Virus record (IMG/VR): IMGVR_UViG_3300033489_000010 | Span: 1-57,418 of that record | Length of the DNA stretch: 57,418 nt | Strand: one strand, 5' to 3' | Source: a virus | Taxonomy: Duplodnaviria > Caudoviricetes | Part shown: positions 12,001 to 41,547 of the stretch, one piece after another | Numbering within the stretch: the first letter of the stretch is position 1 | How the letters are laid out: each line of letters begins with the position of its first letter | Program-made: the position numbers and the translations under genes | The notes under the pieces: generated by a model | The model's input: the letters and a program-made list of their open reading frames with translations, nothing else | The model's database searches: none | What the model was told of the DNA's origin: nothing

Positions 12001-15000
12001 CAATGCTCAATCTCATGGTTCAGGGTCCAGGTGCCTGCCAGGTCTTTGACCAGTTCAATTTTATTTTTTCGGTAGGCCCCCAGGATCTGGCCTTTCTCGT
12101 TCCTCTTTCCGGTTTTCATGTCAAGGATGAGGCTCCCGTGTTTGCCTGGTTCTACGGATGTGATTTGAAGTTCTCCGCCGCCTTGGGTCCTGATCCGGAC
12201 TGAACCGTCGTCGGATATGCTGACGTCTTGGCCCGGGAAGGCTTTTTGGATGTCGCTTATGGTTACGAGTTGGGAGGGAGTCTGAGAAGAATATTGCACA
12301 CCTTCCCCCGGTGTGCTGGATGGGTTAGGGGATGAGTTTATAATTTCGATTAAATCATCAACGGCTTTCTGTTTTTGCGTGGCCTCTTTATCATATCCTT
12401 GGTAGCCCATGCCTTTTAAATATTTGGCAGTATTGAGCTGGTTAATTTTTAAAATTAATTCTGACTGTTTGTAAGATGGGCCTTTCTTATTGTATTCAGC
12501 TTTGGATATTGGGGATAGGTTCGACATTACAAATTCATCGTCACCACCAAAACCTATAACCTCTCCCTCGTAATAATATATTTTACGCTTAGAGGCTGCA
12601 TCCATTGTGGCGAATCCTCTGGATTCATCAAACCCAAAAACAGAAGCCATCGAAACGCCGGATTCATATTTATTTTCTCTTGAATTATAAGACTGTCCGC
12701 TTTCAGGGGCTTCCCCATATCTATACCCAACGGTTTTAACAGATATCTTTCCATCCTTGAAAGCTTTTACTGACTTATTAATGGACTCTAAATTGATACC
12801 ACCATCGGGCTGCGGGGTTAATCCAGTGGTTATGTCGTCGCCCTTCCCCGTTTCGGATTTCACTGATTCTTTATTATCAGGATTTTTATTATTTTGTAAA
12901 GAGGAATGATACTGCACCTCACCGTCCTGCTGATTAATGGGCTGTTCGGAAAACTCAGGAGTCTTTATTCCGAGAATATCCATAACCTTCACAGAGTCTG
13001 CCGCATTCTCAAACACTTCCTCCATGCCGTTGATCAAATGATCAAGCGTCCGTTTCATCCTTCCGGCTGGAACAAATACCTTCATCCTGTTTCCGGATTT
13101 CACAAAGTCGCTTCCAACCGAATCAATCAGCCCTGAATTCAGATAATACCGGCTACCACTTGCCTTGGATGCAGGGACAGAAATGGTCCCTGACCCATCC
13201 TGTTTCGGTGTAATGGCAAAATCCCCACGCCTGGACCTGACAAAGATATTATTGCTTAAAACCGTCATGATATCTTTGGTGTTGGTCAAAGTAATCGGTC
13301 GGCCTTGAGATTCTTTATTCAGATCAAATTTTGCAGGCATCAATATACCCTGCCGGACCCGGCCTTTATCGTCCGCGAAATTAATGATCCTGCCCTTCGG
13401 ATACCGGGCAAAGGCTGCCAGTAAATTCCCGGTCATGATAACTCTGGTTTCCCTGGCACTCTGGCTGGACCGGTCGAATTTTGACAAAACGGATTCGTTT
13501 ATTTTCCCGTTATTGCTGAAAGATTCCATCCGGTTGATAAAGGAAAATGGCACGACGAGTTTTCTTGTTGAATCTGGAACTGCAACGGTAACTTTCCATG
13601 TTCCCAAAGCCAATGGATTTTTGGGATTGCCTTTTTGCTCAACACCGAGAACAACGGTTTCAAAATACGTGTCACCTATAGGGATTTCAAGAATAGATCC
13701 TGGCACGGATGAATAAAAGACTCTTTCCCAATCATCTCTTATTGCGTCAAGCCTGCTCGCCTGGGCTCTCAATCTTTCCTCATCCTCGATATCATCCAAT
13801 ATACCATTTCGATAATCAAGGAATCGGTTCAGGATATCTGAGCTTTTATCATAATGTTTGTCACGGCCTTCATTTGCCAATTCATTCAAGCTTTTTTCTG
13901 TGGTTCTTGCCTCTTTCGAATCAAGCCCGAATATGTTTTCCTTTAATAGATTGACAACCTCTTCACTGGAATACGATTTGCCTATCTTTTTCATGTCCAC
14001 TTCTTCGGCAAAGGCATTGCTGGTAAAAGGAGATTTATCGCCCTTACCATCAAAAACAGTGGCTTTTTTTAATGTTTTGGCATCGGTATCAAAGGTCTTT
14101 GCCTCCAGGTCATTCTCGCCCATGGCGTCAAGCTGATCAATCAGATCTGTGTATCCTTCCTCAATCAAGGCATAAAGGTCTTCCTGTTCTTTGATGGTCG
14201 GCAATAAGGGAATTCTGCCAGTCACCTTCCGGGCCGCGCCATCTTCATCAAGTCCTGATTCCGTCTTATCTGAATTTTTTAAAGGGCTCCCGATGGCAGA
14301 GTGCATTTCAGGAAAGTCCGCCATAAGCCTAGCAACAACCTTGTCACCATATTTATTGATAAAATCCACAACATTTTTGGCCGTGACTTCGCTGTCCTTG
14401 GATGCAGTCGTGTTGGCGTTCAGGCTTGCCATTTTCCCGGCCAGAACAGCAGCCGGTCTTTTTTCGGAAGGGATATCCCCCATGAGCTGGATATATGATG
14501 GCGTTTTTACCTGTCCGGCCCGGTGTATCCTGCCGAGCATCTGCATATGTGTATCAATGTTTGCCTCGGCCTGGGCAATGATCATTACTCTTGGTTTGGG
14601 ATCGTGTCCCTCCCACTTCGGTACCGCATGAAGTGACAACCCGGTTGCCCCGCTTTGATTTAGAATTAAAACATCTGTTTTGTCGGTGTTGAAATCATAA
14701 ATGGTTTTTGTTCGGCCGGCAATGCTTTTGTCTTTCGTCCCCCTCATCCGGTATCGCTGAGATCCGTCCGGCCGGTATTCAATCATATGATTCCGGCCTG
14801 TTATTTCACTGGCATTCAATCCGGCTCCCTTCAGTTTGAATATCATATAATCAACCGGGGAAACCGGGAGCCCGTCAAGATCCATATCAAAAATAAGTTT
14901 TTTAACCCGGTTGAATTCCCTGACTCCTTCCGGGCCTAAGTCATCATCTGAAATATAATGACGGATGACATCTTTTTTATTACCGCCTGGCTTCGTTTCG

Positions 15001-18000
15001 GTGTATCGCCGGGTATTATCCAGATACTTGAACAGGAGATCATTAAACTTGAGGCCGATCCCATCTCCAGGCTTCAACCCGTTATCCTCTACATACTGCT
15101 CAATGAATGAGCCCATGGTGTTTGAAAGTGTGATAACCGGCTTTTTATCTTCCTTCACGGCCTTGATAGCTTCATCAACGGCTGCTTGAGTCTTCAGGGA
15201 AAGCAGCATCTGAGAAATAAGATTGTGCATGGTGGATGCGAAACTGACCGAGCTGATTTGAGGTGCCGCTGCCGCTGACATGCCGCCGATACCGGTTCCA
15301 TCAAAGGCTCCCTGATCTGCAAGCTCAGATATTGCAGGTTCTATAAATTCTTCTGAAAATTTTTTGATCTGATTCAAAGAGATGGAAACATCCCGAGCCC
15401 GGACCTGATCAATCTTGGTTGCCTTGGTGGCATACTCAACACCGTCAAAAGACCTTTCACGCCTCACATACTGCCCGGCCTCCACCAGCATTGCCGCCAC
15501 GGCCTGCTGTAACGGGACCCCGCCTGCGGATATGGCCCCTGACAGATCCTTGATATCATCGACGGCAAGGCGCATATCTGTTTTGGAATACAAATCCATG
15601 GTGCTCGGCCGCTTTGCATATGTGGCGGATGAATAAAATGTTGAATGGGCGCTTTGAATTAATCGTCTGAACCATATTGACCTTGGATATTTCTCGTTGG
15701 TTTCCTGAGCTCCCTCTGACCCTCCGGCCTTATGAGCTTCATCAAGAATGAGCATCCCATTTTTTTCGGCCATGGCTTCCAGGAAAACCCGCTGTGCTGA
15801 ACCCGGTTTATTTGTCTGGTCATATGTGGTAAAAATCACGCTGTACTTTGAATCAAGAAACCCATTATCAGCCATCTGTTTCAAAAGCGAATTGTGCTTA
15901 TTCGTGGTTCGGATGACCTTATCTCCGTCCTCGGTCAAGGATATTTTTTGATCGGCATTGGTGATCAGTATCCGGTCCGCCATGTCAGACATCCCGATAT
16001 CTGAAAGATCCCGGTACATATCCGTGTAAAGGTTCGGCTTCTCAGTAACAAATATGGGAGTGAGGCCCCGCTCCATGGCAAACCGGATCATGGCAGCAAC
16101 AACCCGGCCCTTGCCCACACCGGTCTGATCCCCGATAATAAACCCGGCCCCTTTATCAATGTTGTTGATGGCCAGGGCGATGGCGTCAACCTGTTCACCG
16201 GAAAAATATTCCTTCAGTTCATCCTGGGAGTACCCGAGCTTTTCAGAGACATACTCATCCACAAGCCCATGCTTTTCATTGATGTCGGCCAGGGCCTTTT
16301 TGATGGCCTCGGACATATTCACGGGCGTGAGGGTTTCTATGGCAGGAGATTTGCTTGATGGGATATAGGGAACCTGCCCGGAGTTTGCCTTTGCTTTTTC
16401 TTTTGGTTTTGGCTGTAGTTGCTGTGACTGTTCCATGAAAAATCGTTTTAAATAAGGCTTCAATTCTGCGCCTGTTTGTGTGGCCAGATATTGAATCAAC
16501 TGTTTAAGCGTGTGCCCGGCTTTCTTTGCATGGTCCCAGGCGCTTGCAAAGAAAGGCCGTGCAGCTTTATAGGTTTCTTCATTAAAGACAAATCCAGATG
16601 ACAGGGTGTTCCTTGGAGTGAAAAGGGCGTTTAGGCCCTTGATGGCATCTTTAACGTCTGACAAGCTTTCTAAAGCAAAATCGTTTAACAGGTCTTTCTT
16701 TGTTTTGGGTTTTCTATTTGGTGGCTTGTTCTTTTGCGCTTCTCTCCTGGCCCAATTTTTTAGATATTGTTCTATCGCCTTTTCATTTTTAGCCCGTGAA
16801 GATTGCAACCCTACTTCGGAGGATCGTCTTCCTCTGTCTGGTTTTTCAACAGGGATAGCGATATCATCCGTAGAGGTGTTAAAAACATCGTCAATAAGTC
16901 CGTCAATTTCTTCAACGGACATATTTTGAAGTTCTTCCGATATGTCTTTGGGAACGGTTATGTCTGGACCGAAAGCATCGTCCAGCATGGAATCAAGATC
17001 AGATTCAGAAATGTTTTTTAATTCATCCGTTAAGCCAGGTTTTCCATCCAGGTTTCCAGATCCATCAGTCTTAGGATTTCTTCGGCTTCCGGGCTGGTCT
17101 CCATTATCGGGCTTGTCGGCAGGTTGTCGTGAACTCCCATCATCGACAGGTGATGATACAGGCGTTCGTTGATCTGGTCCGACATCAGATCTAGTGCCGC
17201 CGTCCTTGTCGATCTCGGGGATATCATTCCGTCCTGTAACAGATCGGCGTTCTCCAGGGTCTTTTCCAGCATCTTTGCCGCTTCCTGGGGATATTCCGCT
17301 TTGTTTATCAGGTTCTGAACCAGGTCTATCATCAGGTATCTGTGGTAACTTGGCGTCAGGGTCTCCCCCTTCGGGAGCCATACCGCTGCTATCCATTGCG
17401 CCGAGCTCTCCTCGGGAGGAGCCCAGGCTATCAGGTCTTTGTGTGGTCTTTCCATCAAGCTTTCCTTTCAGTTCTTCCAGCGTTTTTAAATAGGGTGGCG
17501 GAACCGCCCCAGGAAGAGCAAGTTTTGATTTCCCCTTCCCATCAATCACTATGAAATCAACCGGCCAGGCAGCACCCTGCTTTGCATAAAGATCGCCTGA
17601 CAAAGAAAAGTGGTCAACTACATTATAATTGTCAAAGAGGGTTTTGTAAAATAAAACCTTATCTTTTGCTCGGTATAAAAGCTTTCTGCCTTCCGGGGTA
17701 ATGTTTTTATCATTCACACTTCCGACAATGAAAACCGCCCAGCCATTATCTTTCATGGATTCAAGAGCCTTAAAAACGATGGCATGGTCAATCTGAGTCG
17801 TGGGATATTGATCGTTTATTTTCCAGGTTTTTGATACTCCGGCGTCATCCTTGACAACACCAAATGGAGGGTTGCCGATGACAGCATCTACTTTTTCAGC
17901 CGCTGATATTTCTGTCCCATCAAGGTTGAAAATGACATTGAAGCCCATCCCGAGCAGGGTATTATACCGGTCCGGATTCAATTCGTTGGCCGTCACCTTC

Positions 18001-21000
18001 TCAGGGTTCGACCCGATAAGCAAGGCCCCATTCCCGGCTGACGGCTCATAAACGGTTTTACCGGATGTGATCCCGGCCAGTTCAGACGCAATCCATGCCA
18101 AAGGAAGAGGGGTTGAATATGCCTGATCTCTGACCGATGTGGATGTCCTGACGGAAAGATTCGGCATTCGGTTTTGCAAGTCAACGAGCTTATCAAATAT
18201 CTTTTCAGACGTCCCGTTGTGCTTTTTTCCGCCATCTATAATCGCCCGGGCTGCGAGTACGCCGGCCGTCTCGATGGCTTCATCCACCATCTTGGCATCC
18301 TGGGTACCGGCCTTAATGATAAAGCCTGTTTCATCCGCAAAGGCTTTTCTGGCCTGGAGGATATTGGCAAAGCCCTTCCCGGATCGGAATGCGGAAAGGA
18401 AGAAATCTGTTATGTCGCTTTTGGTAGGTTGTTCTTTGGTATCTATTTTTTCTTTTGACTCTTTTTCTACCTTCTCTCTATCAAACTCCGCAATCTCTTC
18501 GATTGTCAGATAATCTGTTGCCCCTTGTTTGTACAGGTCTTTTGGGTTATGGGGCTGCGGCATCACGCCGCTTCTTGTTGGCACAAGGCGCACGGGGTGA
18601 CCGACACGGAGCCCGGATTCTTCTTGATATGATCTGGCTCCCCTCTCATCAACATAAATTCTTTTTCCGTCAGGGTTTCGGCCTATAGCCCCCCTAAGGT
18701 CCATGTCATCATCTTTTTTAATGGGTTCCGTTATCGTCGATTCAGGAACATTTTCTGGGATATTCTCAGGAACATTCAGAGACAGATCCTTCTCCTTAAC
18801 AAATGTCCCTTTCCCATCCTGCTTTCTAATAAACCACATTTTGTCGGACTGTTTTTTTTCAAGCTTTCCGGAAAACTGGTCGCCGTTCTTACCATTCCAT
18901 GATACCGGATCTCCGGGCTTTAAGCCGGTTGTCTGCGGAGCAATGGCAGTGTCAGAAAAGACAGGTTTCTTGGTTCTATTGCCATCTTTCACCCAGGCCT
19001 TGAAATCTTCTGTGCCCATCTCGGTGATATTTCCAAGGCCTTTCCAGCCCTTTTCATAATTGGCAAGATAAATGGATTCAGCTTCTTCCTTTGACCCGGC
19101 GCCAAGCACCGCCTTGTGCTCATCAAACTTTCCGGTTCCCGGGTCTACCTGATCAACAACAAATACTTTCGGGCTGGTTTCTGTTCCGGGCTTGATAAAA
19201 ACATCAACCTGATCCCCGTCTTTGCCTTCGGTCCTTTTGAAATAGCCATAATGCCCGGACATGGTTGACTGCCATTCTTTCCCGGATTTATCCTTCCCTT
19301 TTCGGATGGACCCGTCCGGGTTCTCAATCGTGATATTCAAGCCATCAATTTTGATATGGTCTTTCTGGTAATTCCCGGCCTCTTTCTGGGCTTCGCTCGG
19401 GTTGGTATTTATTTTTTCCGGTTCAACTTCATGCTCAAAAACTGGCCGCAATGTTGAAATCGCTTCCGCCGGAAGATCCTGCATTCCAAAATTATCAGTT
19501 AAGCCCTGTTGAAATTTTCTTTGATCACGGACAGGAGAGGTCTCAACCTCCGCTGGTGCAACGTCCAGCCCGTCATCATAATTATTTTCAGGAAATACCG
19601 GAAGAGCCTGGCGCGGTAACATATCGGCCAAACCTGCAAACGGTCTGTATTTGCCTTCATCGCTGGTATCGGCCATGCCTCTCTGAAAAGCTGGCATGTC
19701 AGCAGGAAGCGGCATCGTGCTTTCATCCGGACCATTTACCATGGCTCTTTGAAAAACAGGTTGATCGGTCTGACCCATGGCCTGCTGACGAAGTTCTAAA
19801 GCCTGTACGGATGCTTCCCGGCTTCTGACTTGCCGGAAGGTATCAATATTTTTAGAAAGCAGATCCTGGCTTTGATCGATACCCTGTTTTGTAATGGCCG
19901 GATCAGGTTGGGAATAAATGCCTGTCATGGCCTGTTGATTCTGCTCTCGCAGAGATTGAACCGGGTCAGACGTGGAAGGAGTCTCGGTCGGTGCAGGCGG
20001 GGCAGGATTCCTCTGCCGGTTGATTTCGTCCATCCATCCGAGTTCTTCCTCATTCGGTACGCCTGCAAACGGGATCGTGTCGGAATATTGTTCGGCCGGT
20101 GCGGTTCGCATTGCGGTTTGAAAACTGTCTGCCGGGGCCTGTGGTGATTTGGTTAAATCTTCTCCGGAAAAACCTTTGTTTGGATCCAAAAGGTTTGTGG
20201 GCTTGTCTTTCAATAAAGCGTTTGCGCCAATAGAAACACCAGCTCCACCGGCCCCACCGACTGCCCCGGCTCCCATAGCTTCAATAATTTGCTCTATATT
20301 GGCTGGTGTAAGAAATTTTTCATCAGTATTTGCAACTGTATTCAAAATACTAAATACTTCCTGGCCGCCTTCCTGTAATACTTCTTTTGGGATATTGGTG
20401 ATCAGTCCCATAGCGGCTGACTTGATCGCTTTCCCGGAACCAGATCCAACCACGTCAACAAATTGGTCAATCAGTTCGCTGTTACCGCCGGCGTATTCCA
20501 GCGATGTAGACAAGGCTCCGAAAAACAAAGCCGTGCCAGGGGCATCAATGCCTTTTTCCTGAAGCAATTGAGCATAATTCCCACCGGATTCCAATGGCAG
20601 AACCGCAGCGCCCATGCCTACTTTCCCGCCAAGTTTCATCAAGGCCTGTTTTGTGATCTGTTTTTTAAGCTCAGTTTCTGCAATGCCTTTTGATGCCTCG
20701 GTAATCACGCCCTTGGCTATTTGAGCCTCCACGGCTTCTTTTGTCATTGATTCGATAGATTTTTTCAATATGGTTCTGCTTGCGAACCCGCCTATTGCGG
20801 ACCCTGGTCCAGGAGCAACGCCGGTTCCTATAATGGTTCCAATAGCAGCCTCAGCCATGGATGGGACCAACTCTCCAAGGGTGCCTTGTAGCCAGTCAAC
20901 AGACCCACCAATTCCAGCCTTTCCAGTATAAACATCTTTAAAGGTTTGTTTTGCGGGATTCTCTTCGGCCTCGGCCATGTTACGCTGATATCCTTGCATA

Positions 21001-21266
21001 CCCCAATTTTTAACGGAGTCAGAGCCAACCGCTGATCCGACAAGAGCTGTTGCACCATATAAACTGGCCTGCGTTTGATCAATGCCTCGTTTGATACCTG
21101 GGATGAAATCATTGTCAGATTGCACTTCAAATTCATCTTCACTTATTGCTGTAGGCGGACCAAATTTAAAATTAGAATTCTCTAAAATTCCACCACTTGC
21201 TGAGCCTATGTCAAACTCATCAGGACTGATTGCAACTGCATTTTTCCCAAGAAAAAAAGCCGACAT
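9033..21266 (-). CDS. Giant 4077-aa polyvalent (DarB-like) virion ejection protein: inorganic pyrophosphatase-like, N6-adenine MTase, Strawberry-notch SF2 helicase, zincin and LPD38-like domains
   Basis: AGNYQKDH..IENP.GS.R...HYGY...DGDQVDVF..DEHK (about 19.4-19.0 kb); YSTP/EPSAGNG/NPPF (18.1-17.8 kb); GDQTGVGKGR, DEAH, QSGATGLSLHA, QMLGRIHR (16.1-14.5 kb); HEIEH (about 12.0 kb); RIPKPFEIG (about 9.8 kb). Confidence 0.85.
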   Translation of the reverse strand: MSAFFLGKNAVAISPDEFDIGSASGGILENSNFKFGPPTAISEDEFEVQSDNDFIPGIKRGIDQTQASLYGATALVGSAVGSDSVKNWGMQGYQRNMAEAEENPAKQTFKDVYTGKAGIGGSVDWLQGTLGELVPSMAEAAIGTIIGTGVAPGPGSAIGGFASRTILKKSIESMTKEAVEAQIAKGVITEASKGIAETELKKQITKQALMKLGGKVGMGAAVLPLESGGNYAQLLQEKGIDAPGTALFFGALSTSLEYAGGNSELIDQFVDVVGSGSGKAIKSAAMGLITNIPKEVLQEGGQEVFSILNTVANTDEKFLTPANIEQIIEAMGAGAVGGAGGAGVSIGANALLKDKPTNLLDPNKGFSGEDLTKSPQAPADSFQTAMRTAPAEQYSDTIPFAGVPNEEELGWMDEINRQRNPAPPAPTETPSTSDPVQSLREQNQQAMTGIYSQPDPAITKQGIDQSQDLLSKNIDTFRQVRSREASVQALELRQQAMGQTDQPVFQRAMVNGPDESTMPLPADMPAFQRGMADTSDEGKYRPFAGLADMLPRQALPVFPENNYDDGLDVAPAEVETSPVRDQRKFQQGLTDNFGMQDLPAEAISTLRPVFEHEVEPEKINTNPSEAQKEAGNYQKDHIKIDGLNITIENPDGSIRKGKDKSGKEWQSTMSGHYGYFKRTEGKDGDQVDVFIKPGTETSPKVFVVDQVDPGTGKFDEHKAVLGAGSKEEAESIYLANYEKGWKGLGNITEMGTEDFKAWVKDGNRTKKPVFSDTAIAPQTTGLKPGDPVSWNGKNGDQFSGKLEKKQSDKMWFIRKQDGKGTFVKEKDLSLNVPENIPENVPESTITEPIKKDDDMDLRGAIGRNPDGKRIYVDERGARSYQEESGLRVGHPVRLVPTRSGVMPQPHNPKDLYKQGATDYLTIEEIAEFDREKVEKESKEKIDTKEQPTKSDITDFFLSAFRSGKGFANILQARKAFADETGFIIKAGTQDAKMVDEAIETAGVLAARAIIDGGKKHNGTSEKIFDKLVDLQNRMPNLSVRTSTSVRDQAYSTPLPLAWIASELAGITSGKTVYEPSAGNGALLIGSNPEKVTANELNPDRYNTLLGMGFNVIFNLDGTEISAAEKVDAVIGNPPFGVVKDDAGVSKTWKINDQYPTTQIDHAIVFKALESMKDNGWAVFIVGSVNDKNITPEGRKLLYRAKDKVLFYKTLFDNYNVVDHFSLSGDLYAKQGAAWPVDFIVIDGKGKSKLALPGAVPPPYLKTLEELKGKLDGKTTQRPDSLGSSRGELGAMDSSGMAPEGGDPDAKLPQIPDDRPGSEPDKQSGISPGSGKDAGKDPGERRSVTGRNDIPEIDKDGGTRSDVGPDQRTPVSSPVDDGSSRQPADKPDNGDQPGSRRNPKTDGSGNLDGKPGLTDELKNISESDLDSMLDDAFGPDITVPKDISEELQNMSVEEIDGLIDDVFNTSTDDIAIPVEKPDRGRRSSEVGLQSSRAKNEKAIEQYLKNWARREAQKNKPPNRKPKTKKDLLNDFALESLSDVKDAIKGLNALFTPRNTLSSGFVFNEETYKAARPFFASAWDHAKKAGHTLKQLIQYLATQTGAELKPYLKRFFMEQSQQLQPKPKEKAKANSGQVPYIPSSKSPAIETLTPVNMSEAIKKALADINEKHGLVDEYVSEKLGYSQDELKEYFSGEQVDAIALAINNIDKGAGFIIGDQTGVGKGRVVAAMIRFAMERGLTPIFVTEKPNLYTDMYRDLSDIGMSDMADRILITNADQKISLTEDGDKVIRTTNKHNSLLKQMADNGFLDSKYSVIFTTYDQTNKPGSAQRVFLEAMAEKNGMLILDEAHKAGGSEGAQETNEKYPRSIWFRRLIQSAHSTFYSSATYAKRPSTMDLYSKTDMRLAVDDIKDLSGAISAGGVPLQQAVAAMLVEAGQYVRRERSFDGVEYATKATKIDQVRARDVSISLNQIKKFSEEFIEPAISELADQGAFDGTGIGGMSAAAAPQISSVSFASTMHNLISQMLLSLKTQAAVDEAIKAVKEDKKPVITLSNTMGSFIEQYVEDNGLKPGDGIGLKFNDLLFKYLDNTRRYTETKPGGNKKDVIRHYISDDDLGPEGVREFNRVKKLIFDMDLDGLPVSPVDYMIFKLKGAGLNASEITGRNHMIEYRPDGSQRYRMRGTKDKSIAGRTKTIYDFNTDKTDVLILNQSGATGLSLHAVPKWEGHDPKPRVMIIAQAEANIDTHMQMLGRIHRAGQVKTPSYIQLMGDIPSEKRPAAVLAGKMASLNANTTASKDSEVTAKNVVDFINKYGDKVVARLMADFPEMHSAIGSPLKNSDKTESGLDEDGAARKVTGRIPLLPTIKEQEDLYALIEEGYTDLIDQLDAMGENDLEAKTFDTDAKTLKKATVFDGKGDKSPFTSNAFAEEVDMKKIGKSYSSEEVVNLLKENIFGLDSKEARTTEKSLNELANEGRDKHYDKSSDILNRFLDYRNGILDDIEDEERLRAQASRLDAIRDDWERVFYSSVPGSILEIPIGDTYFETVVLGVEQKGNPKNPLALGTWKVTVAVPDSTRKLVVPFSFINRMESFSNNGKINESVLSKFDRSSQSARETRVIMTGNLLAAFARYPKGRIINFADDKGRVRQGILMPAKFDLNKESQGRPITLTNTKDIMTVLSNNIFVRSRRGDFAITPKQDGSGTISVPASKASGSRYYLNSGLIDSVGSDFVKSGNRMKVFVPAGRMKRTLDHLINGMEEVFENAADSVKVMDILGIKTPEFSEQPINQQDGEVQYHSSLQNNKNPDNKESVKSETGKGDDITTGLTPQPDGGINLESINKSVKAFKDGKISVKTVGYRYGEAPESGQSYNSRENKYESGVSMASVFGFDESRGFATMDAASKRKIYYYEGEVIGFGGDDEFVMSNLSPISKAEYNKKGPSYKQSELILKINQLNTAKYLKGMGYQGYDKEATQKQKAVDDLIEIINSSPNPSSTPGEGVQYSSQTPSQLVTISDIQKAFPGQDVSISDDGSVRIRTQGGGELQITSVEPGKHGSLILDMKTGKRNEKGQILGAYRKNKIELVKDLAGTWTLNHEIEHWLEDIGIIGPREKLILDSRINAAKAQLNFELVADQRENRANYIARVLEERRYERDTLLGEIIQKIRDFLDSIRNLFGPSVRKIAREMESGKIYNKIPGQTDSNETLFNKGIIDEKFYSEPTTREQISGMIDKAKSKDERTLARDRFITKTLDHLHFIKERLGDEPYKLHRMLTGIKSATFAMFLEHGPMAWVGDTIAVTERGKGVIPFLRAIGPDWRNLLYWVAAKRAEQLEAEGRENWLDKDARDKLFAKVGTHAKNGQTWAALNLKLQSINKNVLDIAEQAGLIDPESRAEWESNFYIPFYRIMEDPISQQEFLSGPRKNWRHISAQIKKLKGGEAKIGDPLENLLKNWMHLVDASVRNRARQRAFEAGETVGIIEEVEKKDLVKILGSETVTRFAVVKEGATKGRDIFGTKEKAETWAYSLEDDGKGQYSVEPRKEYKVMFGSMKDYGILSFQKNGEPVYFKTTDEDLYESLSELDMKAFNNILMRMMGGAKRILSFGATFGPAFRIRNMIRDTIHTAVVAKNFVPFLDTASGFIKSMKEDKDYIEFMSTGFGFGSSYVKSDDPKTASRFIDKIVRSEGKSAIRRIIDPFKPWDNALFRVWDKIGEASENAARLGLYTRLKSKGYSNLDAGFEARDLLDFSMRGSSGTVQALTRIVPFLNARVQGLYKLSRSANENPKAFFLKSAILTTAALALWSLFKDDDRYKSLEDWDKWTYFHFWIGDQHYRIPKPFEIGALFASLPESVANVMNGTEEGKFVWDWFKFTARDVFNIDMPQMVKPIMEERFNMSTFKGRRIVPDSMKNLKPSEQYMPWTSDTMKMIGGSLNVSPLKLEHFVNGYFSTMGAMVLFGTDAMSRSAMGYPDLPEGRRNPFALGVMDTGDVRSSKDVQRFYDLYEKIDGLNRTLNHYLKTGRREDARNLVIENKNLLRVKKPVTKIRQNLADINDEIKRIYSSNDNSEEKQNKINALNKRRNEITKNLFESLRASE
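17030..17455 (-). CDS. Candidate nested (overprinted) gene in an alternative frame of the giant gene's disordered linker
   Basis: 141-codon ORF; AAAGGA SD 7 nt before the ATG; helical globular-like composition exactly spanning a G/D/P/S/R-rich linker of the main frame. Confidence 0.45.
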   Translation of the reverse strand: MERPHKDLIAWAPPEESSAQWIAAVWLPKGETLTPSYHRYLMIDLVQNLINKAEYPQEAAKMLEKTLENADLLQDGMISPRSTRTAALDLMSDQINERLYHHLSMMGVHDNLPTSPIMETSPEAEEILRLMDLETWMENLA

Positions 21267-29972: not shown

Positions 29973-30770
29973 CTATGCAGCTTTGGCGTACAAATGGCCC
30001 ATCGCATCGGCCTTGATGACTTTGTATCCATACACTTGAAGACCACGCATCAATTTACCGAAGTCATTCGGATTCGGAATAGTTTCATTCTCCACCAGCT
30101 GGCTGGCAAACGTAAGGGCTGATTTATGCCCGAACAACAGACTGAAACATTTAACTGCGCCTTCCGTTGTGCTGAGGACGTTGTTTGAAACATAGAGCTC
30201 AGTATCATCGATTTTGCCAATCCTTCCGTTTCTAATCATGGATGTGCCATCGCCGGAATAACTTGCGTCTGCTAAATCAGAGGTTTTTATTCTGGTGGCA
30301 GCCCATGCAGGAATAACAAACCATCTGTTGGTATTGGGTATGTCCTGCTCTGTCAGCACCTGGCCGCATTCCACAATTTTATCAATGATGGTAGATTTGG
30401 ACAGTGCGATAGCGGCTGATCCATCGGCAGCCGCGGCCCCGAGACCAACATTTCCGGAAATCTTACCAGCGGTGGCTCCGTAATTATAAGTCCCTGCCGA
30501 TGCAGGAATGGCAGCCAGAATACCAGTGTCAATGGAGATTTTCATCTGTTCTGAGCCATCCTCTGCCCATTTATTAACATATGCGATATCAGATTGTTTT
30601 TTCTCCACATCATTAATCGACACTGCAAAATATTTGCCCTTATCGATCAAGAGCTCAACCTTGTATGAAGTCGGGCGTTCATACTGCAATCCTGCTCCGA
30701 TTTCGTAATCACGGATTGTCATATCTGGAATAGTCCTGATAATGACCTTATCTCCGTGGGCAGAAATTTC
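29973..30770 (-). CDS. Major capsid protein, exon 2 (spliced product about 316 aa, P22-coat-like)
   Basis: EISAHGDKVIIRT..., LLIDKGKYFA, NGRIGKID..E.YVSNN, FG..MRGLQVYGYKV; joins exon 1 in frame to give NTDYEG|EISAHGDKV. Confidence 0.9.
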   Translation of the reverse strand, partial: EISAHGDKVIIRTIPDMTIRDYEIGAGLQYERPTSYKVELLIDKGKYFAVSINDVEKKQSDIAYVNKWAEDGSEQMKISIDTGILAAIPASAGTYNYGATAGKISGNVGLGAAAADGSAAIALSKSTIIDKIVECGQVLTEQDIPNTNRWFVIPAWAATRIKTSDLADASYSGDGTSMIRNGRIGKIDDTELYVSNNVLSTTEGAVKCFSLLFGHKSALTFASQLVENETIPNPNDFGKLMRGLQVYGYKVIKADAMGHLYAKAA

Positions 30771-31100
30771 CGTTTTGTTATTGTCTGGAGTGTTTATCTC
30801 CAGCTCCTGCATGTTTCCATACAGACCGGACTATATCTTCAATGTTTTTTTCTTGGCCGCTTAATCATATATTTACAAGAAAAACATTGCCCCGCACTCG
30901 TGGATTGTTCGCCTTCTAATAAGGGTACTGAATCTAGTCTCTGAACCTTCACCCTGTCACCAGGGAACTTGGCGGCTGATTGCCCAATCCATTCGCTTTT
31001 CAAACCATTACGCTTGCCGTTACCAGCTACGTTGTGGTGCAAATGGCTATAAGGGTGTTCCAGCAATTCACGGGGTTTAACGAGAGCCATTTATCCACTA
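30771..31100 (-). ncRNA. Group I self-splicing intron (330 nt, no homing endonuclease, probably subgroup IA) in the major capsid gene
   Basis: P AATTGCTGGAA (31058-68), Q AATCAGCCGCC (30971-81), R GTTCAGAGACTA (30935-46), S AAGATATAGTCC (30828-39). 5' exon ends in U and pairs with IGS GCUCUCGU via U.G; intron ends in omega-G; P8 and P9 (GAAA loop) hairpins present. Confidence 0.93.
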
Positions 31101-31253
31101 ACCCTCATAATCGGTGTTTGCAATTGCCCCAAAAACAGTGGCAGCATAAAACTTTACAAGGAGCTTACCGCTCCAGATTTCCGGAATGTATGTACCGGAC
31201 AAACCATTCCCGGCTGCATATGCGCCGAGACTTGAATCAATTGGATATACCAT
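31101..31253 (-). CDS. Major capsid protein, exon 1 (51 aa)
   Basis: AGGAGG RBS; MVYPIDSSLGAYAAGNGLSGTYIPEIWSGKLLVKFYAATVFGAIANTDYEG, a typical capsid N-terminus (IPEIWS.KL). Confidence 0.9.
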
Positions 31254-31272: not shown

Positions 31273-32220
31273 TCAGGCCCGGATTCTCCCTTCTACTTGA
31301 GCTAAGAAAATGTCATTTTCGATGGTCGCGGCCTCTGTCTCCCGCCCTCGGTATGCGCCAGCCGTCTGATCAGCATAGAATTTTGTGATCTCTGACCGGC
31401 TCCATACTTTTTGGTTCCCTGCCGGTTTCGGATTTATATCCGATCCAGTTAAATTATGAGGGGGCTGGACATTTGGAGGATTGGCAGCCTGCTGATTGAC
31501 ATTGTCCTGTATGTTTTGCTCAATGGAATGAGCCTGGCCTAAATATGTTCTGAAGATCTCAACGGTTGTAGGAAGGTCCATCGAATTTTCAGCTCTACGC
31601 AGCTTGGCAATCCTGGACTCGTATTCTCCAACTGGCACCTGTTTCAACCACCCTATAAAAACGGGGTCATTGTTCAGCGAATCAAAATTTGCGCCGAGTT
31701 TGGCAACAGCATCGATTACGCCTTTCATATAGGTGTCAAATGATACGACTCCATAGTTTTCTGATGTGGACTGAATCGAGTTGATTTGCGTGACAAGATC
31801 AGCATTCTGTTTTTTAAGCTGCTGTATCTCATCAACAAGCGACCCGAATTCTTCGCCATACTGTTCAAACTTTTCTTTATTGAGGACATCTCCGCCCGAA
31901 GATTGATCTTTACTGGTTAATTTTAAATTTTGATCTTCAAGGGAATTCACCAGCGCTTTCAGGCTTCTGATCTCCATAGTCAGTTTTGGCACCTCGGCAT
32001 TGTATTTGCCTTGGATTGTCAAATATTTGGCTTTGTAATCAGAAGTGTCTGTTTCTGCGGGTGATTGTTCTGGAGGCGTGTCCGCAACATTATTCGGCGG
32101 CAAAGTATCCTTGGGTTCCGGTTTCGGAGTATCCTCGGGTTTTGTGCCTGATAATTGTGCATGGAGGGTGTCGGCGAGTTCTCCGGCCCTCTGGACTGCT
32201 ACCGGGATAAATTCATTCAT
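31273..32220 (-). CDS. Capsid scaffolding protein
   Basis: KY.TIQGKYNAEVP, coiled coil, acidic/Pro-rich; ends IFLAQVEGRI; directly upstream of the capsid gene. Confidence 0.75.
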   Translation of the reverse strand: MNEFIPVAVQRAGELADTLHAQLSGTKPEDTPKPEPKDTLPPNNVADTPPEQSPAETDTSDYKAKYLTIQGKYNAEVPKLTMEIRSLKALVNSLEDQNLKLTSKDQSSGGDVLNKEKFEQYGEEFGSLVDEIQQLKKQNADLVTQINSIQSTSENYGVVSFDTYMKGVIDAVAKLGANFDSLNNDPVFIGWLKQVPVGEYESRIAKLRRAENSMDLPTTVEIFRTYLGQAHSIEQNIQDNVNQQAANPPNVQPPHNLTGSDINPKPAGNQKVWSRSEITKFYADQTAGAYRGRETEAATIENDIFLAQVEGRIRA

Positions 32221-37672: not shown

Positions 37673-39643
37673 CTTAAGTTTCGCTTGTTTGACGTTTGAT
37701 TTCATTAGTTTTGGATAAAATTATCCGATCTTTCGCTTCAGCCGATTTTACCCCGTTTATGAAGTATCAAACAAATACTGGTAAGTGTAGCATTTTTCCG
37801 GCACATCCAGAATTGATAAAATATCTTTTTGTGTTTCTGTCAGCTTTGACACAAAATATTGCTGGCTTCCATCAAGAAGCATTATCACGCCACATACGAC
37901 AAATTCAAACATTGCCAACATGTTTTCTGTTTTAGGGTTGCGGACATCTTTTTTATTGGGCATGAAATTATCCAACCCTTTATCCCGTTCGGCAATCTTT
38001 TTTCTGGCCGTTCTTTCTATAAGAACCAAAATTTGAAGCGCTGTTTTAAAAAGAAAAAGATAAGCTTCTATTCTATCGGGCGTTTGCAGATAGATCGGTT
38101 CAAGCTTGTGATCCGATTTTGACCGTTTATAAAGATGCTCCACCTTGTACTGGTTTTTATGGGCCAGCATCGCATCTTCTATTGAAAAATCACAAGCGGG
38201 TTTGTTGGTGACGAGAGGATAATAGCCGATTTGATACTGGGTCTTGGTACAGGCGATCTCGTCATAATTGAGTTTTATGGAAAAGTTATTTTGATGGACC
38301 GCAATTCTCTCTGCATTTTTGGCAGGTCGGCCGGGCTTTTCGTTTTTATATGTGACCTCTGGATCATTGTGGACAACGAAATCGAAAAATGCCTGTGTCT
38401 TATATTTTTTCAATATAGCCTGACAAGCTTGCTCAATGCTGTCCTTGGTCTTGAGCTTATATGCATTGATTTTTTTGGAGAGTTCATCAAATGCCGCTTG
38501 GGTTTTAGTGATTTGTTCCAGAAGAGATTTTTTTCGGCGGTGAAACAGTCCCTGATCAAAAAGGATGATCATTCTGAAAGTATAACTTTTGTTCTCGTGT
38601 TCAAAAATCAGAGGGACCTCAAATCCCCGGTTCATTTGATCTTTGTAAGGAATCAGGACTTCGTGGTCATGCTTATCCAGTGCAGTGAAAAGGGTTTCTT
38701 GATAGGAGGCATACATGGGCAGAGGGCTCAAAAAATATCCTTCGTGATCATTTATGTGCGCCATATTCCCATGGGTGGCCACCTTGGAATCGCCTGCAAA
38801 TAAAAAATCTTTCTTCCCCAGCAGGTCAATCAAATGGTGCCACTGTTCCACGTAAGTTTCCACATCAGCGGTGTTGCCACTATATGCCTGTTGAAATAAA
38901 GGGAAACAACTGTCAGAACTGGCGGTCATAGACCATACCAACTGCTTCAGATCTTTTCGGTATTGTTTGCTGTACCCGTAGGAAATCTTGATGCTCTGGT
39001 CTGATCTGTTTTTGTCACTTTCTCCATAAAATTGCGCACAGGTCGTATCGTTATGGCAGATTTCCGTCTGAATTTTAAACTCTTCGATTATATGCCGGGT
39101 AATCAGCAGCTCCAGATTGCCAATGCCGAATTTATAAATAGCATCCAGAGTATCGCCCAGCCGGTCGTCAAAATATTCATCCGGGCTTATGTCAGGAAAA
39201 ATGACATCAAGGACATTTGATTCTTTGGCAAACTTGCAAACCTTGTAAAGCGACATAATCTGAAAAAGAATGGCGGTGATCATGGCTATGCTTGCCTGCC
39301 CATGAGTGAGTATTTTACGTCTTGCATCAAGAGGGACGTTCTGATCAATAATATCAGCGATACAACATTTTTGGAAATAATGTTGCAAAATCGGGGCAAA
39401 ACCGATCGGCTTTGTCTCGACATTATTATTGACGTTATCCGCCATAATATTGATTCCCGTAAGTCATTGGAATCATATAATATATTAATAATGAAAAATC
39501 TAGTTTTGTTTTTAGCTGTTATAGCCATTTATATATGATTATCTGCAATTATATATAATAATATATCAATTTTTAAACATTTTCATCGATTATCTCTTAT
39601 TTGCTAATTATTTAACTTTTGTTTTGAACAAGCGAAACTTAAG
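37673..39643 (-). mobile_element. IS1634-family insertion sequence, 1971 bp
   Basis: Perfect 17-bp TIRs CTTAAGTTTCGCTTGTT (37673-89 and reverse complement 39627-43); 5-bp TSD TTGGT (37668-72 and 39644-48). Confidence 0.92.
37757..39445 (-). CDS. IS1634-family DDE transposase
   Basis: DDRLGDTLD, HNDTT, YGYSK..R.DLKQ, GNTAD, GDSK, KNQYKVEH..K..K...L.PIYL....RIEA. Confidence 0.9.
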   Translation of the reverse strand: MADNVNNNVETKPIGFAPILQHYFQKCCIADIIDQNVPLDARRKILTHGQASIAMITAILFQIMSLYKVCKFAKESNVLDVIFPDISPDEYFDDRLGDTLDAIYKFGIGNLELLITRHIIEEFKIQTEICHNDTTCAQFYGESDKNRSDQSIKISYGYSKQYRKDLKQLVWSMTASSDSCFPLFQQAYSGNTADVETYVEQWHHLIDLLGKKDFLFAGDSKVATHGNMAHINDHEGYFLSPLPMYASYQETLFTALDKHDHEVLIPYKDQMNRGFEVPLIFEHENKSYTFRMIILFDQGLFHRRKKSLLEQITKTQAAFDELSKKINAYKLKTKDSIEQACQAILKKYKTQAFFDFVVHNDPEVTYKNEKPGRPAKNAERIAVHQNNFSIKLNYDEIACTKTQYQIGYYPLVTNKPACDFSIEDAMLAHKNQYKVEHLYKRSKSDHKLEPIYLQTPDRIEAYLFLFKTALQILVLIERTARKKIAERDKGLDNFMPNKKDVRNPKTENMLAMFEFVVCGVIMLLDGSQQYFVSKLTETQKDILSILDVPEKCYTYQYLFDTS

Positions 39644-39794: not shown

Positions 39795-40406
39795 TCATTT
39801 TCCCAGACCACCAACATTTTCGACCATTTTTTGTCTCGGCTCAGGCAGCCCACGCCCATTGGCTACTGATATAGCACCGAATAAATCGGCCATAAACTGT
39901 TCCCTTGCGGCCTGATCGGCTTCGCCTTTTTGCTTGTTGTCTTTTTCAAACAGGCCGAGATGTTTGGCCAGGTTTTCAAGCGCCCGGTCTTTAGGCTGGA
40001 ATTTAACACTTTTGATATATGTCTTGACCTCGTCTTCTCCGGACGGGTTTTTTATAATCACATGCCCCATCTTGATACCGTGTATCGCTGCCGATATATT
40101 CTCGTCTATATCTTTGATGTCCTTAATTGATCCATCATCCTTAAAAAGATCGGGGACTCTGTAAAAAGCTATCCTTGCCATTTCTAAAAGCACTTTTTCG
40201 GTAGATATTTCGAGTTTTTCAGCAATTTTTGAGCGTTTTTTTTGTAAATACTCTTGTATTTCAAGTTTCGTAAGGTTTTCATAACCAATTTGAAAAGCTG
40301 TTTTTTCCGAATATCCTGCCCTTAATGCCGCCTGTGTTGCGTTCGAATCTATTAAATATTCATGGCAAAAATTAAGCTGTTTGGCAGTAAGCGTTTTGAT
40401 CGTCAA
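39795..40406 (-). CDS. terS: Terminase small subunit
   Basis: LT.KQ..FC.EYL.D.NATQAA.RAGYS.KTA..IG.ENL; K.RALE.L.KHLG.F. Confidence 0.92.
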   Translation of the reverse strand: MTIKTLTAKQLNFCHEYLIDSNATQAALRAGYSEKTAFQIGYENLTKLEIQEYLQKKRSKIAEKLEISTEKVLLEMARIAFYRVPDLFKDDGSIKDIKDIDENISAAIHGIKMGHVIIKNPSGEDEVKTYIKSVKFQPKDRALENLAKHLGLFEKDNKQKGEADQAAREQFMADLFGAISVANGRGLPEPRQKMVENVGGLGK

Positions 40407-40575
40407 ACTGTTTTTTCCTTTTTAAAAAATCATCATCCCGGTCAATAGTTTCTGTCGTCGAAAAAGAATACCCACATGCCGCACACTCGCGGACCCTCAT
40501 AATACTGCGATCATTAATCCACCCTCTCGTATTGTGTACAACCGATTTGGGGTGCTCACATATTGGGCATATCAT
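40372..40575 (-). CDS. NrdR/Ogr-like zinc-ribbon protein (possible late activator)
   Basis: M.CP.C....S.V..TR......R.REC..CG..FST.E; directly upstream of terS. Confidence 0.65.
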   Translation of the reverse strand: MICPICEHPKSVVHNTRGWINDRSIMRVRECAACGYSFSTTETIDRDDDFLKRKKQFDDQNAYCQTA

Positions 40576-40739
40576 GCTGATATTATTGCGAGGGTTGGAC
40601 TGAAAAGGGAAATGGTTTGTCCGTGATTTTGGCTATTTCACGGAAAATTATTTTCAACTTTTTTTCAACTTTTTTTGATTTATTTTCTAACTTATTGAAA
40701 TTGTTCAATATCTTTTTTTAATTATTTTGATCTTTTTGC

Positions 40740-40768
40740 TTGACACAATAATTATCATGCTGTATATT
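40740..40768 (+). promoter_or_regulatory. Sigma70-type promoter of the rightward moron
   Basis: TTGACA-17 nt-TATATT (overlapping TATAAT at 40768), preceded by a very AT-rich UP-like tract. Confidence 0.7.
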
Positions 40769-40817
40769 ATAATCAAACAACGGGGATTAACCCCATAACC
40801 CAAACAAGGAGATCGAA

Positions 40818-41120
40818 ATGAAAAGAATAAGCGTGTACACAGAGCAAAATGATGACGGAAATGTTTTTGAAGGATGGTTTGATCATGACGCAGCGACAGA
40901 ATTAGCGCATGACAAATATGATAGTGGAGCTTATAAAAATGGGAGAAGACTCTTGGCAACAGCCAAGAAAAAGCTCGTTATCAATCATTGGAACAACACC
41001 GGTTATGATGTTTACCGGTTTGCAACAGACGAAAACGAAATAGCCGAAATATTGGCAAAGGGCGGATATGACGGAGATGACAAGAAGCTCTCTGAAATAC
41101 TTGCAAAATATGAAATTTAA
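40818..41120 (+). CDS. Moron gene 1, hypothetical 100-aa protein
   Basis: AAGGAG RBS; opposite strand to the flanking operon. Confidence 0.75.
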   Translation: MKRISVYTEQNDDGNVFEGWFDHDAATELAHDKYDSGAYKNGRRLLATAKKKLVINHWNNTGYDVYRFATDENEIAEILAKGGYDGDDKKLSEILAKYEI

Positions 41121-41174
41121 CCTCACTGACGAGCCTATGAAACCCAGGCGAAACCGGGGAAACCCGGTCTGAGG
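41121..41174 (+). ncRNA. Type I hammerhead ribozyme, predicted cleavage after C41169
   Basis: Stem I CCUCA/UGAGG; core CUGACGA; stem II GCCU/AGGC; GAAA; stem III CCGGG-GAAA-CCCGG; GUC cleavage triplet. All core nucleotides are canonical. Confidence 0.93.
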
Positions 41175-41205
41175 ATCGAAACTAAAAATTAAAAAGGGGG
41201 ATAAA

Positions 41206-41511
41206 ATGAAAAAGCTATGTGATAGATGCGGAAGCGCATCGCCAGAAATGATTGGAATCGGAGGCGCTTTACTCTGCCGGACCTGTGATGATGACATCCG
41301 CCCGGAAATAGCCGCCCTTCGGGCAGACAACCGCCCGGTGAACGTGCTGCAAATTGCCCGCCGCCATTTTAAAGAAAATTTTGCAGGAGGAAATTACATC
41401 CTACGGGAAATTCCGGCTGGCCTGGAAACCGCATGGAAACAACGGGCATTAAAGGATAAGTGTAACCAGCGTGACATTGTGCTGGCTGCGCTTACTGATT
41501 ATTTAAAATAA
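41206..41511 (+). CDS. Moron gene 2: zinc-finger plus ribbon-helix-helix-like DNA-binding protein
   Basis: AGGGGG RBS; CDRC..CRTC; C-terminal YILREIP..L..AWKQRA......RDIVLAAL.DYL. Confidence 0.65.
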   Translation: MKKLCDRCGSASPEMIGIGGALLCRTCDDDIRPEIAALRADNRPVNVLQIARRHFKENFAGGNYILREIPAGLETAWKQRALKDKCNQRDIVLAALTDYLK

Positions 41512-41521
41512 GTCTTACCAC

Positions 41522-41547
41522 GCCCCGGCATCAAACCGGGGCTTTTT
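41522..41547 (+). terminator. Intrinsic terminator closing the moron
   Basis: GCCCCGG-catcaaa-CCGGGGC followed by TTTTT. Confidence 0.8.

Follow-up and report, generated by a model that had tools for sequence, protein, structure and literature searches.

Hundreds of bacterial hammerhead ribozymes, covering all three types and lying in many cases in prophages, have been described by Perreault et al. (2011; PMC3088659), where intergenic representatives from prophages and phages are reported to cleave in vitro as well as in Escherichia coli. The same text describes several hammerheads per prophage, states that a contact of stem I with stem II, often a pseudoknot, is required for fast cleavage at 0.5 mM Mg2+, and proposes that long phage transcripts are cut into gene-length mRNAs. 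The idea that cleavage sets a ratio is likewise already in print as a hypothesis (section 13 of the review PMC6765202). Both phage intergenic hammerheads and the processing of polycistronic mRNA by them are therefore published, and the element described here, located at positions 41121-41174 of the IMG/VR virus record IMGVR_UViG_3300033489_000010, is a further member of this class. The window that we analysed is this entire record, a single contig of 57,418 nucleotides (nt) from a soil metagenome.

The element sits in a cassette at 40740-41547, whose 808 nt accommodate a promoter, a pair of small genes, a single ribozyme and a terminator. Promoter, gene 1, hammerhead, gene 2 and terminator were all recovered where a previous sequence-only reading had placed them (by sequence, open reading frame (ORF), promoter and terminator scans), and its bicistronic layout of co-directional genes sharing one promoter and one terminator was confirmed. 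Since the hammerhead lies between these two genes, self-cleavage would split a bicistronic RNA. We consider it probable, with some reserve, that the element is a functional type I hammerhead which splits this RNA and uncouples a cargo gene, gene 1, from a putatively autoregulating gene 2.

The hammerhead motif and its natural relatives

Every invariant position of the hammerhead core is present (C3 U4 G5 A6 N7 G8 A9, G12 A13 A14, the pair A15.1-U16.1 and H17; Table 1), and the core-adjacent pairs are Watson-Crick in all three stems. With an open stem I and loops closing stems II and III, the topology is that of type I. The first base of the ribozyme directly follows the TAA of gene 1 and the predicted cut lies 36 nt 5' of the gene-2 ATG, just as had been claimed from the sequence. 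When both strands of the window were scanned with a type I descriptor, a single match was returned, and 300 first-order Markov shuffles gave one loose match overall and none with stems as good. The minimum-free-energy fold of the isolated 54-mer is the hammerhead fold (-19.2 kcal/mol). These sequence features make a genuine type I hammerhead, with predicted cleavage, the best reading of 41121-41174.

Natural relatives support this assignment. A pattern search of IMG/VR, which used the core and the first pairs of stems II and III, matched at least 119 stretches, and a stem I of 4-6 pairs was also closed in 110 of 120 pattern matches, although the pattern contained no stem I. A covariance model, R1, was built from seven equal-length IMG/VR type I hammerheads with the window excluded. 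It matched the window at 41118-41177 over its full length with 53.9 bits (rough E-value 2e-14) and one non-standard pair, an A.C in fifth position of stem II; the second-best match in the window reached 9.6 bits. Applied to the window and 99 of the at least 119 IMG/VR loci, R1 gave 128 matches between 27 and 85 bits, including second to fifth hammerheads in single loci that the pattern had not selected. In the alignment of these 128 matches, which is fitted to R1 and in which four stem II and two stem III pairs are fixed by the pattern for most rows, 97.4% of cells were paired versus 70.8% after shuffling. Double-sided changes occurred in 13 of 15 pairs, the covariation score was reached by none of 500 shuffles, and slid controls were paired at only 25-41%.

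The closest subclass comprises 18 sequences with a stem I of five base pairs (bp), a stem II of the form GCCUN-(7-nt loop UGARAYY)-N'AGGC, and UAA or UAG right before stem I. An alignment of 18 hammerheads by MAFFT misaligned the variable stem III and was replaced by a model-based one; L108, whose stem I counts 1 bp, was left out of the subclass alignments. The fifth pair of stem II covaries in this subclass (G-C, A-U, U-A). By eye, no complementarity between loop II and the flanks was conserved in it, and the exact 24-mer of the window's stem II region was found in no IMG/VR stretch.

Many loci carry two to five hammerheads. Among the arrays of R1-matched type I hammerheads on one strand within a few kilobases (kb) are five in L022, four in L095, three in L075 and two each in L046 and L026. 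L046 additionally encodes a twister-P5 ribozyme (1188-1246, 47.3 bits).

The genomic setting of these elements was assessed for 111 distinct hammerhead sites (L013-L111 and the window). A frame of at least 40 codons stops between -1 and +2 nt of the stem I start in 48 of the 111, where 2.3 are expected by chance (692 of 33,300 random same-strand positions); for the interval -9 to +2, which includes stops inside stem I or in the UGA of the core, the count is 81 against 7.1 expected. These figures come from phylogenetically non-independent sites, many of them homologous, and from ORFs taken simply as the longest frame; one frame is, moreover, necessarily closed by the core UGA. On the other side, an ORF start preceded by a Shine-Dalgarno (SD) sequence follows the hammerhead in 97 of the 111 sites, at a median of 37 nt past the cut. 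With 0 nt from stop to stem I and 36 nt from cut to start, the window shows the order of stop codon, hammerhead, about 37 nt and start codon that is typical of the more than 100 phage hammerheads sampled. At 16 sites, the longest frame upstream is closed by the UGA within the CUGA core, and at 16 more it stops inside stem I, so that there the upstream gene reads into the ribozyme. Stop-codon abutment is absent from the main text of PMC3088659, in which 'stop codon' occurs zero times, and was not met in the literature searched.

Conserved operon frame and exchangeable cargo

IMG/VR and JGI metagenomes yielded relatives of gene 2 in L001 (one contig with L004 and L007), L002 (one contig with L005, and L008 and L009 near-identical), L003 (one contig with L006), L010, L011 and L012, the last of which is partial. 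In all seven loci reaching far enough upstream, window included, the operon starts with the same promoter and its spacer inverted repeat, and the genes between promoter and gene 2 vary in number and kind. A blastn comparison with the closest relative, L001, showed similarity at 40234-40775 and 41203-41511, with everything between replaced. The 26-nt terminator sequence was also found after the L001 operon; there, an extra stretch of about 280 nt with a further small ORF separates gene 2 from the shared terminator (L001 3307-3586), which means that gene 2 does not always come last. From another soil sample (run X3, sequenced at low depth, contigs of 151 nt), one contig matched 41194-41249 with one difference and continued upstream into unrelated letters. 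The cassette had been called a self-contained moron; it does have its own promoter and terminator, but promoter, repeat and gene 2 are conserved in the seven loci and only the cargo segment (40776-41202) is variable.

Homologues of gene 1 were missed by a first IMG/VR search (0 loci) and were found by an alignment-based one in six other loci, mostly as the first gene after a similar promoter and with unrelated small genes behind them. The two genes were paired in none of the eight gene-2 loci and none of the six gene-1 loci, and the order gene 1-hammerhead-gene 2, suggested earlier as a conservation check, is not conserved in IMG/VR, the JGI metagenomes or GTDB. A gene 2 search of 185,579 GTDB species genomes returned 58 stretches that fit the pattern, none of which was confirmed, and revealed no prophage relative. 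The compared sequences give the picture of a conserved frame, made up of promoter, operator-like repeat and gene 2, with a slot that takes one of several cargoes, here gene 1, and of a hammerhead that was acquired independently as a third module.

Two candidates from these loci were rejected. The stretch CUGAUGAG upstream of gene 2 in L001 offered no GAAA or stems of a hammerhead by eye in any permutation and no R1 or Rfam match; gene-2-like domains after gene-1 homologues (an RHH-like ORF in L132 and a Zn-finger ORF in L133, where RHH stands for ribbon-helix-helix) received hhalign probabilities of only 1.5% and 8.5% and nothing from Pfam.

The related operons carry a short G+C-rich hairpin, often with a UUCG loop, 10-15 nt 5' of each cistron's SD. 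In the window, the hammerhead occupies the place of this hairpin before gene 2, and its stem III is a similar hairpin. In L132, the stop of the gene-1 homologue is directly followed by GGGGATAAAATG, the same 12 letters as at window 41197-41208. This junction fits, and hints at, a discrete insert of about 75 nt (41121-41195) in the window, but agreement over 12 letters that make up SD, spacer and ATG may also be accidental.

The earlier designation of gene 2 as a Zn/RHH regulator is supported by four invariant cysteines and a predicted RHH-like dimer, but no curated RHH family reached threshold. Its 24 homologues, none of them named, all retain C5, C8, C24 and C27 in two CxxC knuckles, and the protein is laid out as an N-terminal C4 zinc ribbon (residues 1-30), a helical linker and a C-terminal RHH-like part (about 62-101). 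The N-terminus gave sub-threshold matches to the zinc-binding ribosomal protein uS14 type Z (PDB profile E 0.03; NCBIfam E 0.004). The monomer model (predicted local distance difference test (pLDDT) 80.4) contains a small hairpin and four helices. The C-terminal 44 residues (58-101) form a predicted strand-helix-helix unit whose homodimer scored 0.79, against 0.00 for the best control; 20 of 30 solved homodimers pass the mark applied, as does 1 of 23 single-chain proteins, counts that are rough because our own alignment was used. The dimer runs agree in at least 91% of contacts with pLDDT of at least 89, and the predicted contacts (65:65, 66:64, 95:95 and 92:92) place strand 64-66 against its twin and last helix against last helix, which predicts a ribbon-helix-helix arrangement. 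The dimer pass may itself rest on likeness to solved RHH dimers. From these models, gene 2 would encode a zinc-ribbon protein with an RHH-like DNA-binding dimer domain, given here no family assignment. Conservation of both the promoter repeat and the RHH-like protein suggests autoregulation, and the protein probably represses its own operon promoter through the repeat.

Gene 1 belongs to a small family with two clusters at 90% identity, its own included, and 20 representatives at 50%, in which the motif GWFD and a C-terminal KYE[ILV] are conserved. Its model (pLDDT 85.4) predicts six strands and two helices. No match was obtained in Pfam, PADLOC or NCBIfam, and the one PHROG match was weak (E 0.009) and to a PHROG of unknown function. 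Foldseek against PDB gave nothing confident (best PUR-alpha, E 0.23), and the best hit in the VIA wide search, DcpS, was not above background (Z 5.6, root-mean-square deviation (rmsd) 3.8, 61 aligned). An Atlas search returned unnamed clusters only; in one structural neighbour cluster, RHH_1 is present in 27% of members, which is a lead only. Longer or fused forms of gene 1 were searched for and none was found, which is weak evidence.

The cassette is on the plus strand and its flanking ORFs are on the minus strand, which holds nearly all long ORFs from about 4.4 to 54.9 kb. An orientation opposite to the surroundings had been noted from the sequence and is correct: on one side lie an NrdR-like zinc-ribbon gene and the small terminase subunit gene (TerS), on the other a 73-amino-acid (aa) ORF and a radical-SAM gene. 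The window is the genome of a tailed phage and further encodes an SU10-type portal, a helicase, a cytosine methylase and a single ORF of 4077 aa (9033-21266, minus strand). A group I intron (30807-31159, minus strand; Rfam RF00028, 88.2 bits, gathering score 50) lies in the structural-gene region between the minus-strand ORFs 31273-32220 and 29973-30812. Directly after TerS, a 562-aa ORF (37757-39445, minus strand) contains DUF4277 (E 8e-15) and no terminase domain; tblastn against 50,697 phage records found no match to it. We take DUF4277 to be transposase-associated, and the ORF is possibly an insertion element between packaging genes. Within the cassette, the inverted repeat before gene 1 was also scored as a minus-strand terminator-like site by the terminator scan; as an RNA hairpin it may act as a 5' stabiliser of the transcript.

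Table 1. Features of the cassette, with parts of the hammerhead and comparable hairpins of related operons (window coordinates unless a locus is named; UTR, untranslated region).
Feature	Position	Strand	Details
Promoter, sigma-70 type	40740..40768	+	TTGACA(40740)-17 nt-TATATT(40768); 11/12 consensus matches
Operator-like inverted repeat		+	in promoter spacer; window ATAAT-T-ATCAT, relatives ATGAT-N-ATCAT(GAT)
Variable cargo segment	40776..41202	+	5' UTR, gene 1, hammerhead, leader, SD
5'-UTR hairpin	40780..40796	+	ACGGGG-AUUAA-CCCCAU (sequence); few nt 3' of expected transcription start
SD of gene 1	40806-40811	+	AAGGAG
Gene 1	40818..41120	+	100 aa, stop included; TAA 41118-41120; variable cargo
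Type I hammerhead ribozyme (best reading)	41121..41174	+	predicted cleavage 41169/41170
Stem I	41121-41125 / 41170-41174	+	CCUCA/UGAGG; 5 pairs, open
Core	41126-41132	+	CUGACGA
Stem II	41133-41149	+	GCCU/AGGC; 4 pairs, A.C as 5th
GAAA	41150-41153	+	GAA 41150-41152 = core
Stem III	41153-41168	+	ACCGGG-GAAA-CCCGGU; 6 pairs; A41153-U41168
C17	41169	+	C41169; cleavage predicted 3' of it
Leader of predicted 3' product	41170..41205	+	A-rich, 36 nt; SD GGGGGA 41196-41201
Gene 2	41206..41511	+	101 aa, ATG at 41206; zinc ribbon and RHH-like part
Intrinsic terminator	41522..41547	+	GCCCCGG-CAUCAAA-CCGGGGC and U run; hairpin 41522-41542, 7 G-C pairs
Pre-SD hairpins	L002 890-915, 1255-1275; L003 2715-2732; window 40780-40796

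Predicted cleavage and competing explanations

From this anatomy we infer cleavage in vivo, the fates of both products and the autoregulation. One RNA of about 770 nt would start at the cassette's own promoter, the ribozyme would fold once about position 41174 has left the polymerase and cut after C41169, and the 5-bp stem I would then fall apart. The first product would be a gene-1 mRNA (about 40775-41169) with its stop codon kept, a 5' hairpin, and the ribozyme body with a 2',3'-cyclic phosphate at its end; owing to the type I topology, it would keep 49 nt of the ribozyme with stems II and III, including a 6-bp G+C-rich hairpin. The second, a gene-2 mRNA (41170 to about 41547), would bear a 5'-OH and comprise the terminator hairpin and an unstructured leader in which the SD is free. 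By cleavage, decay and translation of the exchangeable cargo gene would be uncoupled from those of the last gene, which is conserved, and with the gene 2 protein probably repressing the promoter via the spacer repeat, the ribozyme would decouple the regulator from cargo output. Consistent with this scheme, stems II and III have probabilities of at least 0.9 in the whole-transcript ensemble, and the leader of the 3' product is predicted to be open after cleavage.

Two details of the earlier proposal need revision. Its gene-1 message was called unprotected, yet with 5' hairpin, 49-nt ribozyme end and 2',3'-cyclic phosphate it would be the better protected of the two. Moreover, a stabilising effect of the 5'-OH on the gene-2 message is unsupported, as the effect depends on the RNases of the host.

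Several results weigh against the reading as a functional, RNA-splitting hammerhead next to an RHH-type regulator. Rfam 15 called no hammerhead in the window at gathering score. No tertiary contact of stem I with stem II was identified by eye, and the fifth pair of stem II is A.C where the closest subclass has G-C, A-U or U-A. In the whole-transcript ensemble, stem I has a probability of only about 0.44, and in the uncut RNA the hammerhead fold (-20.3 kcal/mol) is surpassed by 0.7 kcal/mol by an alternative (-21.0) in which the gene-2 SD pairs with the 5' strand of stem I. In that alternative fold the SD is paired, so that cleavage would free it for good; the local fold z-score is only -1.05, and the SD-pairing point accordingly carries little weight. 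No hammerhead was found in the eight gene-2 loci (best R1 match 11 bits, E 0.37; no Rfam ribozyme at gathering score) or in the six gene-1 loci, and its absence from all relatives makes it dispensable for both genes. Regarding the RHH part, window gene 2 matched no Pfam family, Antitox_RHH appeared in one of the 24 homologues at E 0.14 with no Pfam RHH family at threshold, and the PDB profile match of residues 64-98 to the RHH antitoxin 7e4j reached only E 0.2. Foldseek of the monomer against PDB gave nothing at E of 0.001 or below, and the top hit in the VIA wide search was SciA of phage T5 (Z 5.4, rmsd 3.4, 60 aligned), which is uninformative; the VIA list contains no RHH chain, which is not evidence against the fold.

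The Rfam result extends well beyond this element. In the 211-nt stretch, the best family was RAGATH-1-hammerhead with 22.7 bits (gathering score 56.3), followed by Hammerhead_3 with 19.9 (48.5). A covariance-model check, which the sequence-only reading had proposed, was consequently split: R1 recovers the element, but the Rfam hammerhead models remain below their gathering scores. At the same threshold, Rfam 15 called none of the 24 R1 hammerheads (32-85 bits) in 12 IMG/VR loci (L013, L022, L026, L028, L037, L043, L046, L062, L072, L075, L095 and L105), and it did call the twister-P5 of L046 in this set. As all 24 related phage hammerheads are missed too, the miss reflects the curated models and their seeds more than the window sequence, and the annotation gap for phage type I hammerheads at Rfam thresholds is systematic.

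An opposite outcome of the same anatomy would be that cleavage triggers decay. In hosts with RNase J1, a 5'-OH is an entry point for 5'-3' exonucleolytic decay, as for the product of the glmS ribozyme in Bacillus subtilis; the gene-2 RNA would be degraded, the regulator lowered relative to the cargo, and the feedback weakened. The 3' product is predicted to lack any 5' structure, while other cistrons of these operons are preceded by G+C-rich hairpins (window 40780-40796, L002, L003), and the sample is a soil metagenome, with gene 2 unmatched in the 185,579 species genomes. However, a 5'-OH is a poor decay signal in RNase E-type hosts, and the median 37-nt leader with SD at 97 of 111 sites points to translation of the downstream gene from the RNA after the cut. 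We therefore regard decay as the unlikely outcome, if one to be taken seriously.

The element might also be an inactive or nearly inactive remnant, i.e., a recent insert of about 75 nt that keeps the consensus without a working tertiary contact and merely serves as an intercistronic hairpin region. In line with this, the hammerhead is unique to the window genome among 14 related loci, has no exact stem II relative in IMG/VR, carries the A.C mismatch and shows no tertiary contact by eye, and plain UUCG-type hairpins stand at equivalent intercistronic places in the relatives. Decay should, however, strike the 11 invariant nucleotides first, and core and all three stems are intact; furthermore, the window score falls within the natural range (27-85 bits). 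We hold a remnant to be distinctly unlikely.

The abutment of stem I on the stop codon raises a third option. A ribosome terminating on gene 1 would cover stem I and core, so the ribozyme could be gated by translation and cut only if gene 1 is untranslated or before the first ribosome arrives. The excess of stops at -1 to +2 and at -9 to +2 over expectation speaks for such gating, but compaction of the genome would by itself bring the spacing to zero on the side where no ribosome-binding site is required, and the non-independence of the sites, the longest-frame ORFs and the frame closed by the core UGA diminish the excess as an argument. This option appears improbable to us. An extension of it, in which stop-abutting phage hammerheads are translation-gated switches, SD pairing makes cleavage or the terminating ribosome license gene 2, and the insert of about 75 nt sets the feedback gain of the cargo slot, is a long shot.

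A ribozyme-tuned toxin-antitoxin-like, anti-defence or exclusion pair, with gene 1 as effector and gene 2 as dedicated regulator or antidote, was proposed from the sequence and is favoured by two small genes in one operon with a DNA-binding-type second product, by the weak RHH-antitoxin profile match and by the RHH_1 lead for gene 1, but it is very improbable, as the partners are unlinked (other upstream genes in the gene-2 loci, other downstream genes in the six gene-1 loci, those of L132 and L133 being unrelated to gene 2), co-occur in none of the other loci, and gene 1 has neither an informative fold nor a family match beyond its one weak PHROG.

Significance and comparison with known systems

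Viewed on its own, the element ranks as an ordinary representative of a class already described. What goes beyond the ordinary is the clean minimal operon, the class-wide stop-codon abutment, the blindness of Rfam and the hint of a discrete insert. A large class of phage type I hammerheads escapes the curated thresholds, so that routine annotation misses it, and this class abuts the upstream stop codon with marked regularity, the next start following about 37 nt on. The cassette provides a minimal test bed for the question of what phage-encoded hammerheads do: if cleavage is true, its two predicted products would allow a direct measure of how self-cleavage affects stability and translation of neighbouring cistrons.

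For the frame, the closest parallels are Arc and Mnt of the immI region of phage P22, ribbon-helix-helix repressors of small autoregulated phage cassettes. Gene 2 resembles them in being predicted as a small RHH-type dimer, in its short operon among late genes and in the promoter inverted repeat available for repression. In contrast to Arc and Mnt, it has an additional N-terminal C4 zinc ribbon, sits last or next to last rather than first in its operon and stays below the Pfam RHH thresholds, and its DNA binding is a prediction.

For the ribozyme, parallels are the glmS ribozyme together with RNase J1 and insulators built on synthetic ribozymes, for example RiboJ. The effect of a 5'-OH on RNA stability depends on the host RNases, RNase E-type versus RNase J-type, and in both examples self-cleavage in a bacterial mRNA leader yields a 5'-OH product that meets another fate than the uncut RNA or is translated differently. 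Unlike these, the window ribozyme has no evident ligand control and lies between two cistrons, and its body would stay on the upstream product.

Among the Rfam families compared (RAGATH-1, RF03152, and Hammerhead_1 and Hammerhead_3 of clan CL00010), the RAGATH-1 hammerhead aligns over the whole window ribozyme, sharing the open 5-bp stem I, CUGANGAG, CGAAAC and GUC. Its 5' accessory hairpin has no convincing counterpart in the window, where this region aligned with gaps and only A-U pairs; the window's stem II is longer than that of RAGATH-1, and the score lies below the gathering score of the family.

A close likeness is finally to the prophage hammerheads that Perreault et al. (2011; PMC3088659) describe, a description that both the window element and more than 100 IMG/VR elements fit, and from which the window differs in that its hammerhead is a single copy, outside any array, within a small opposite-strand operon ending in a putative regulator.

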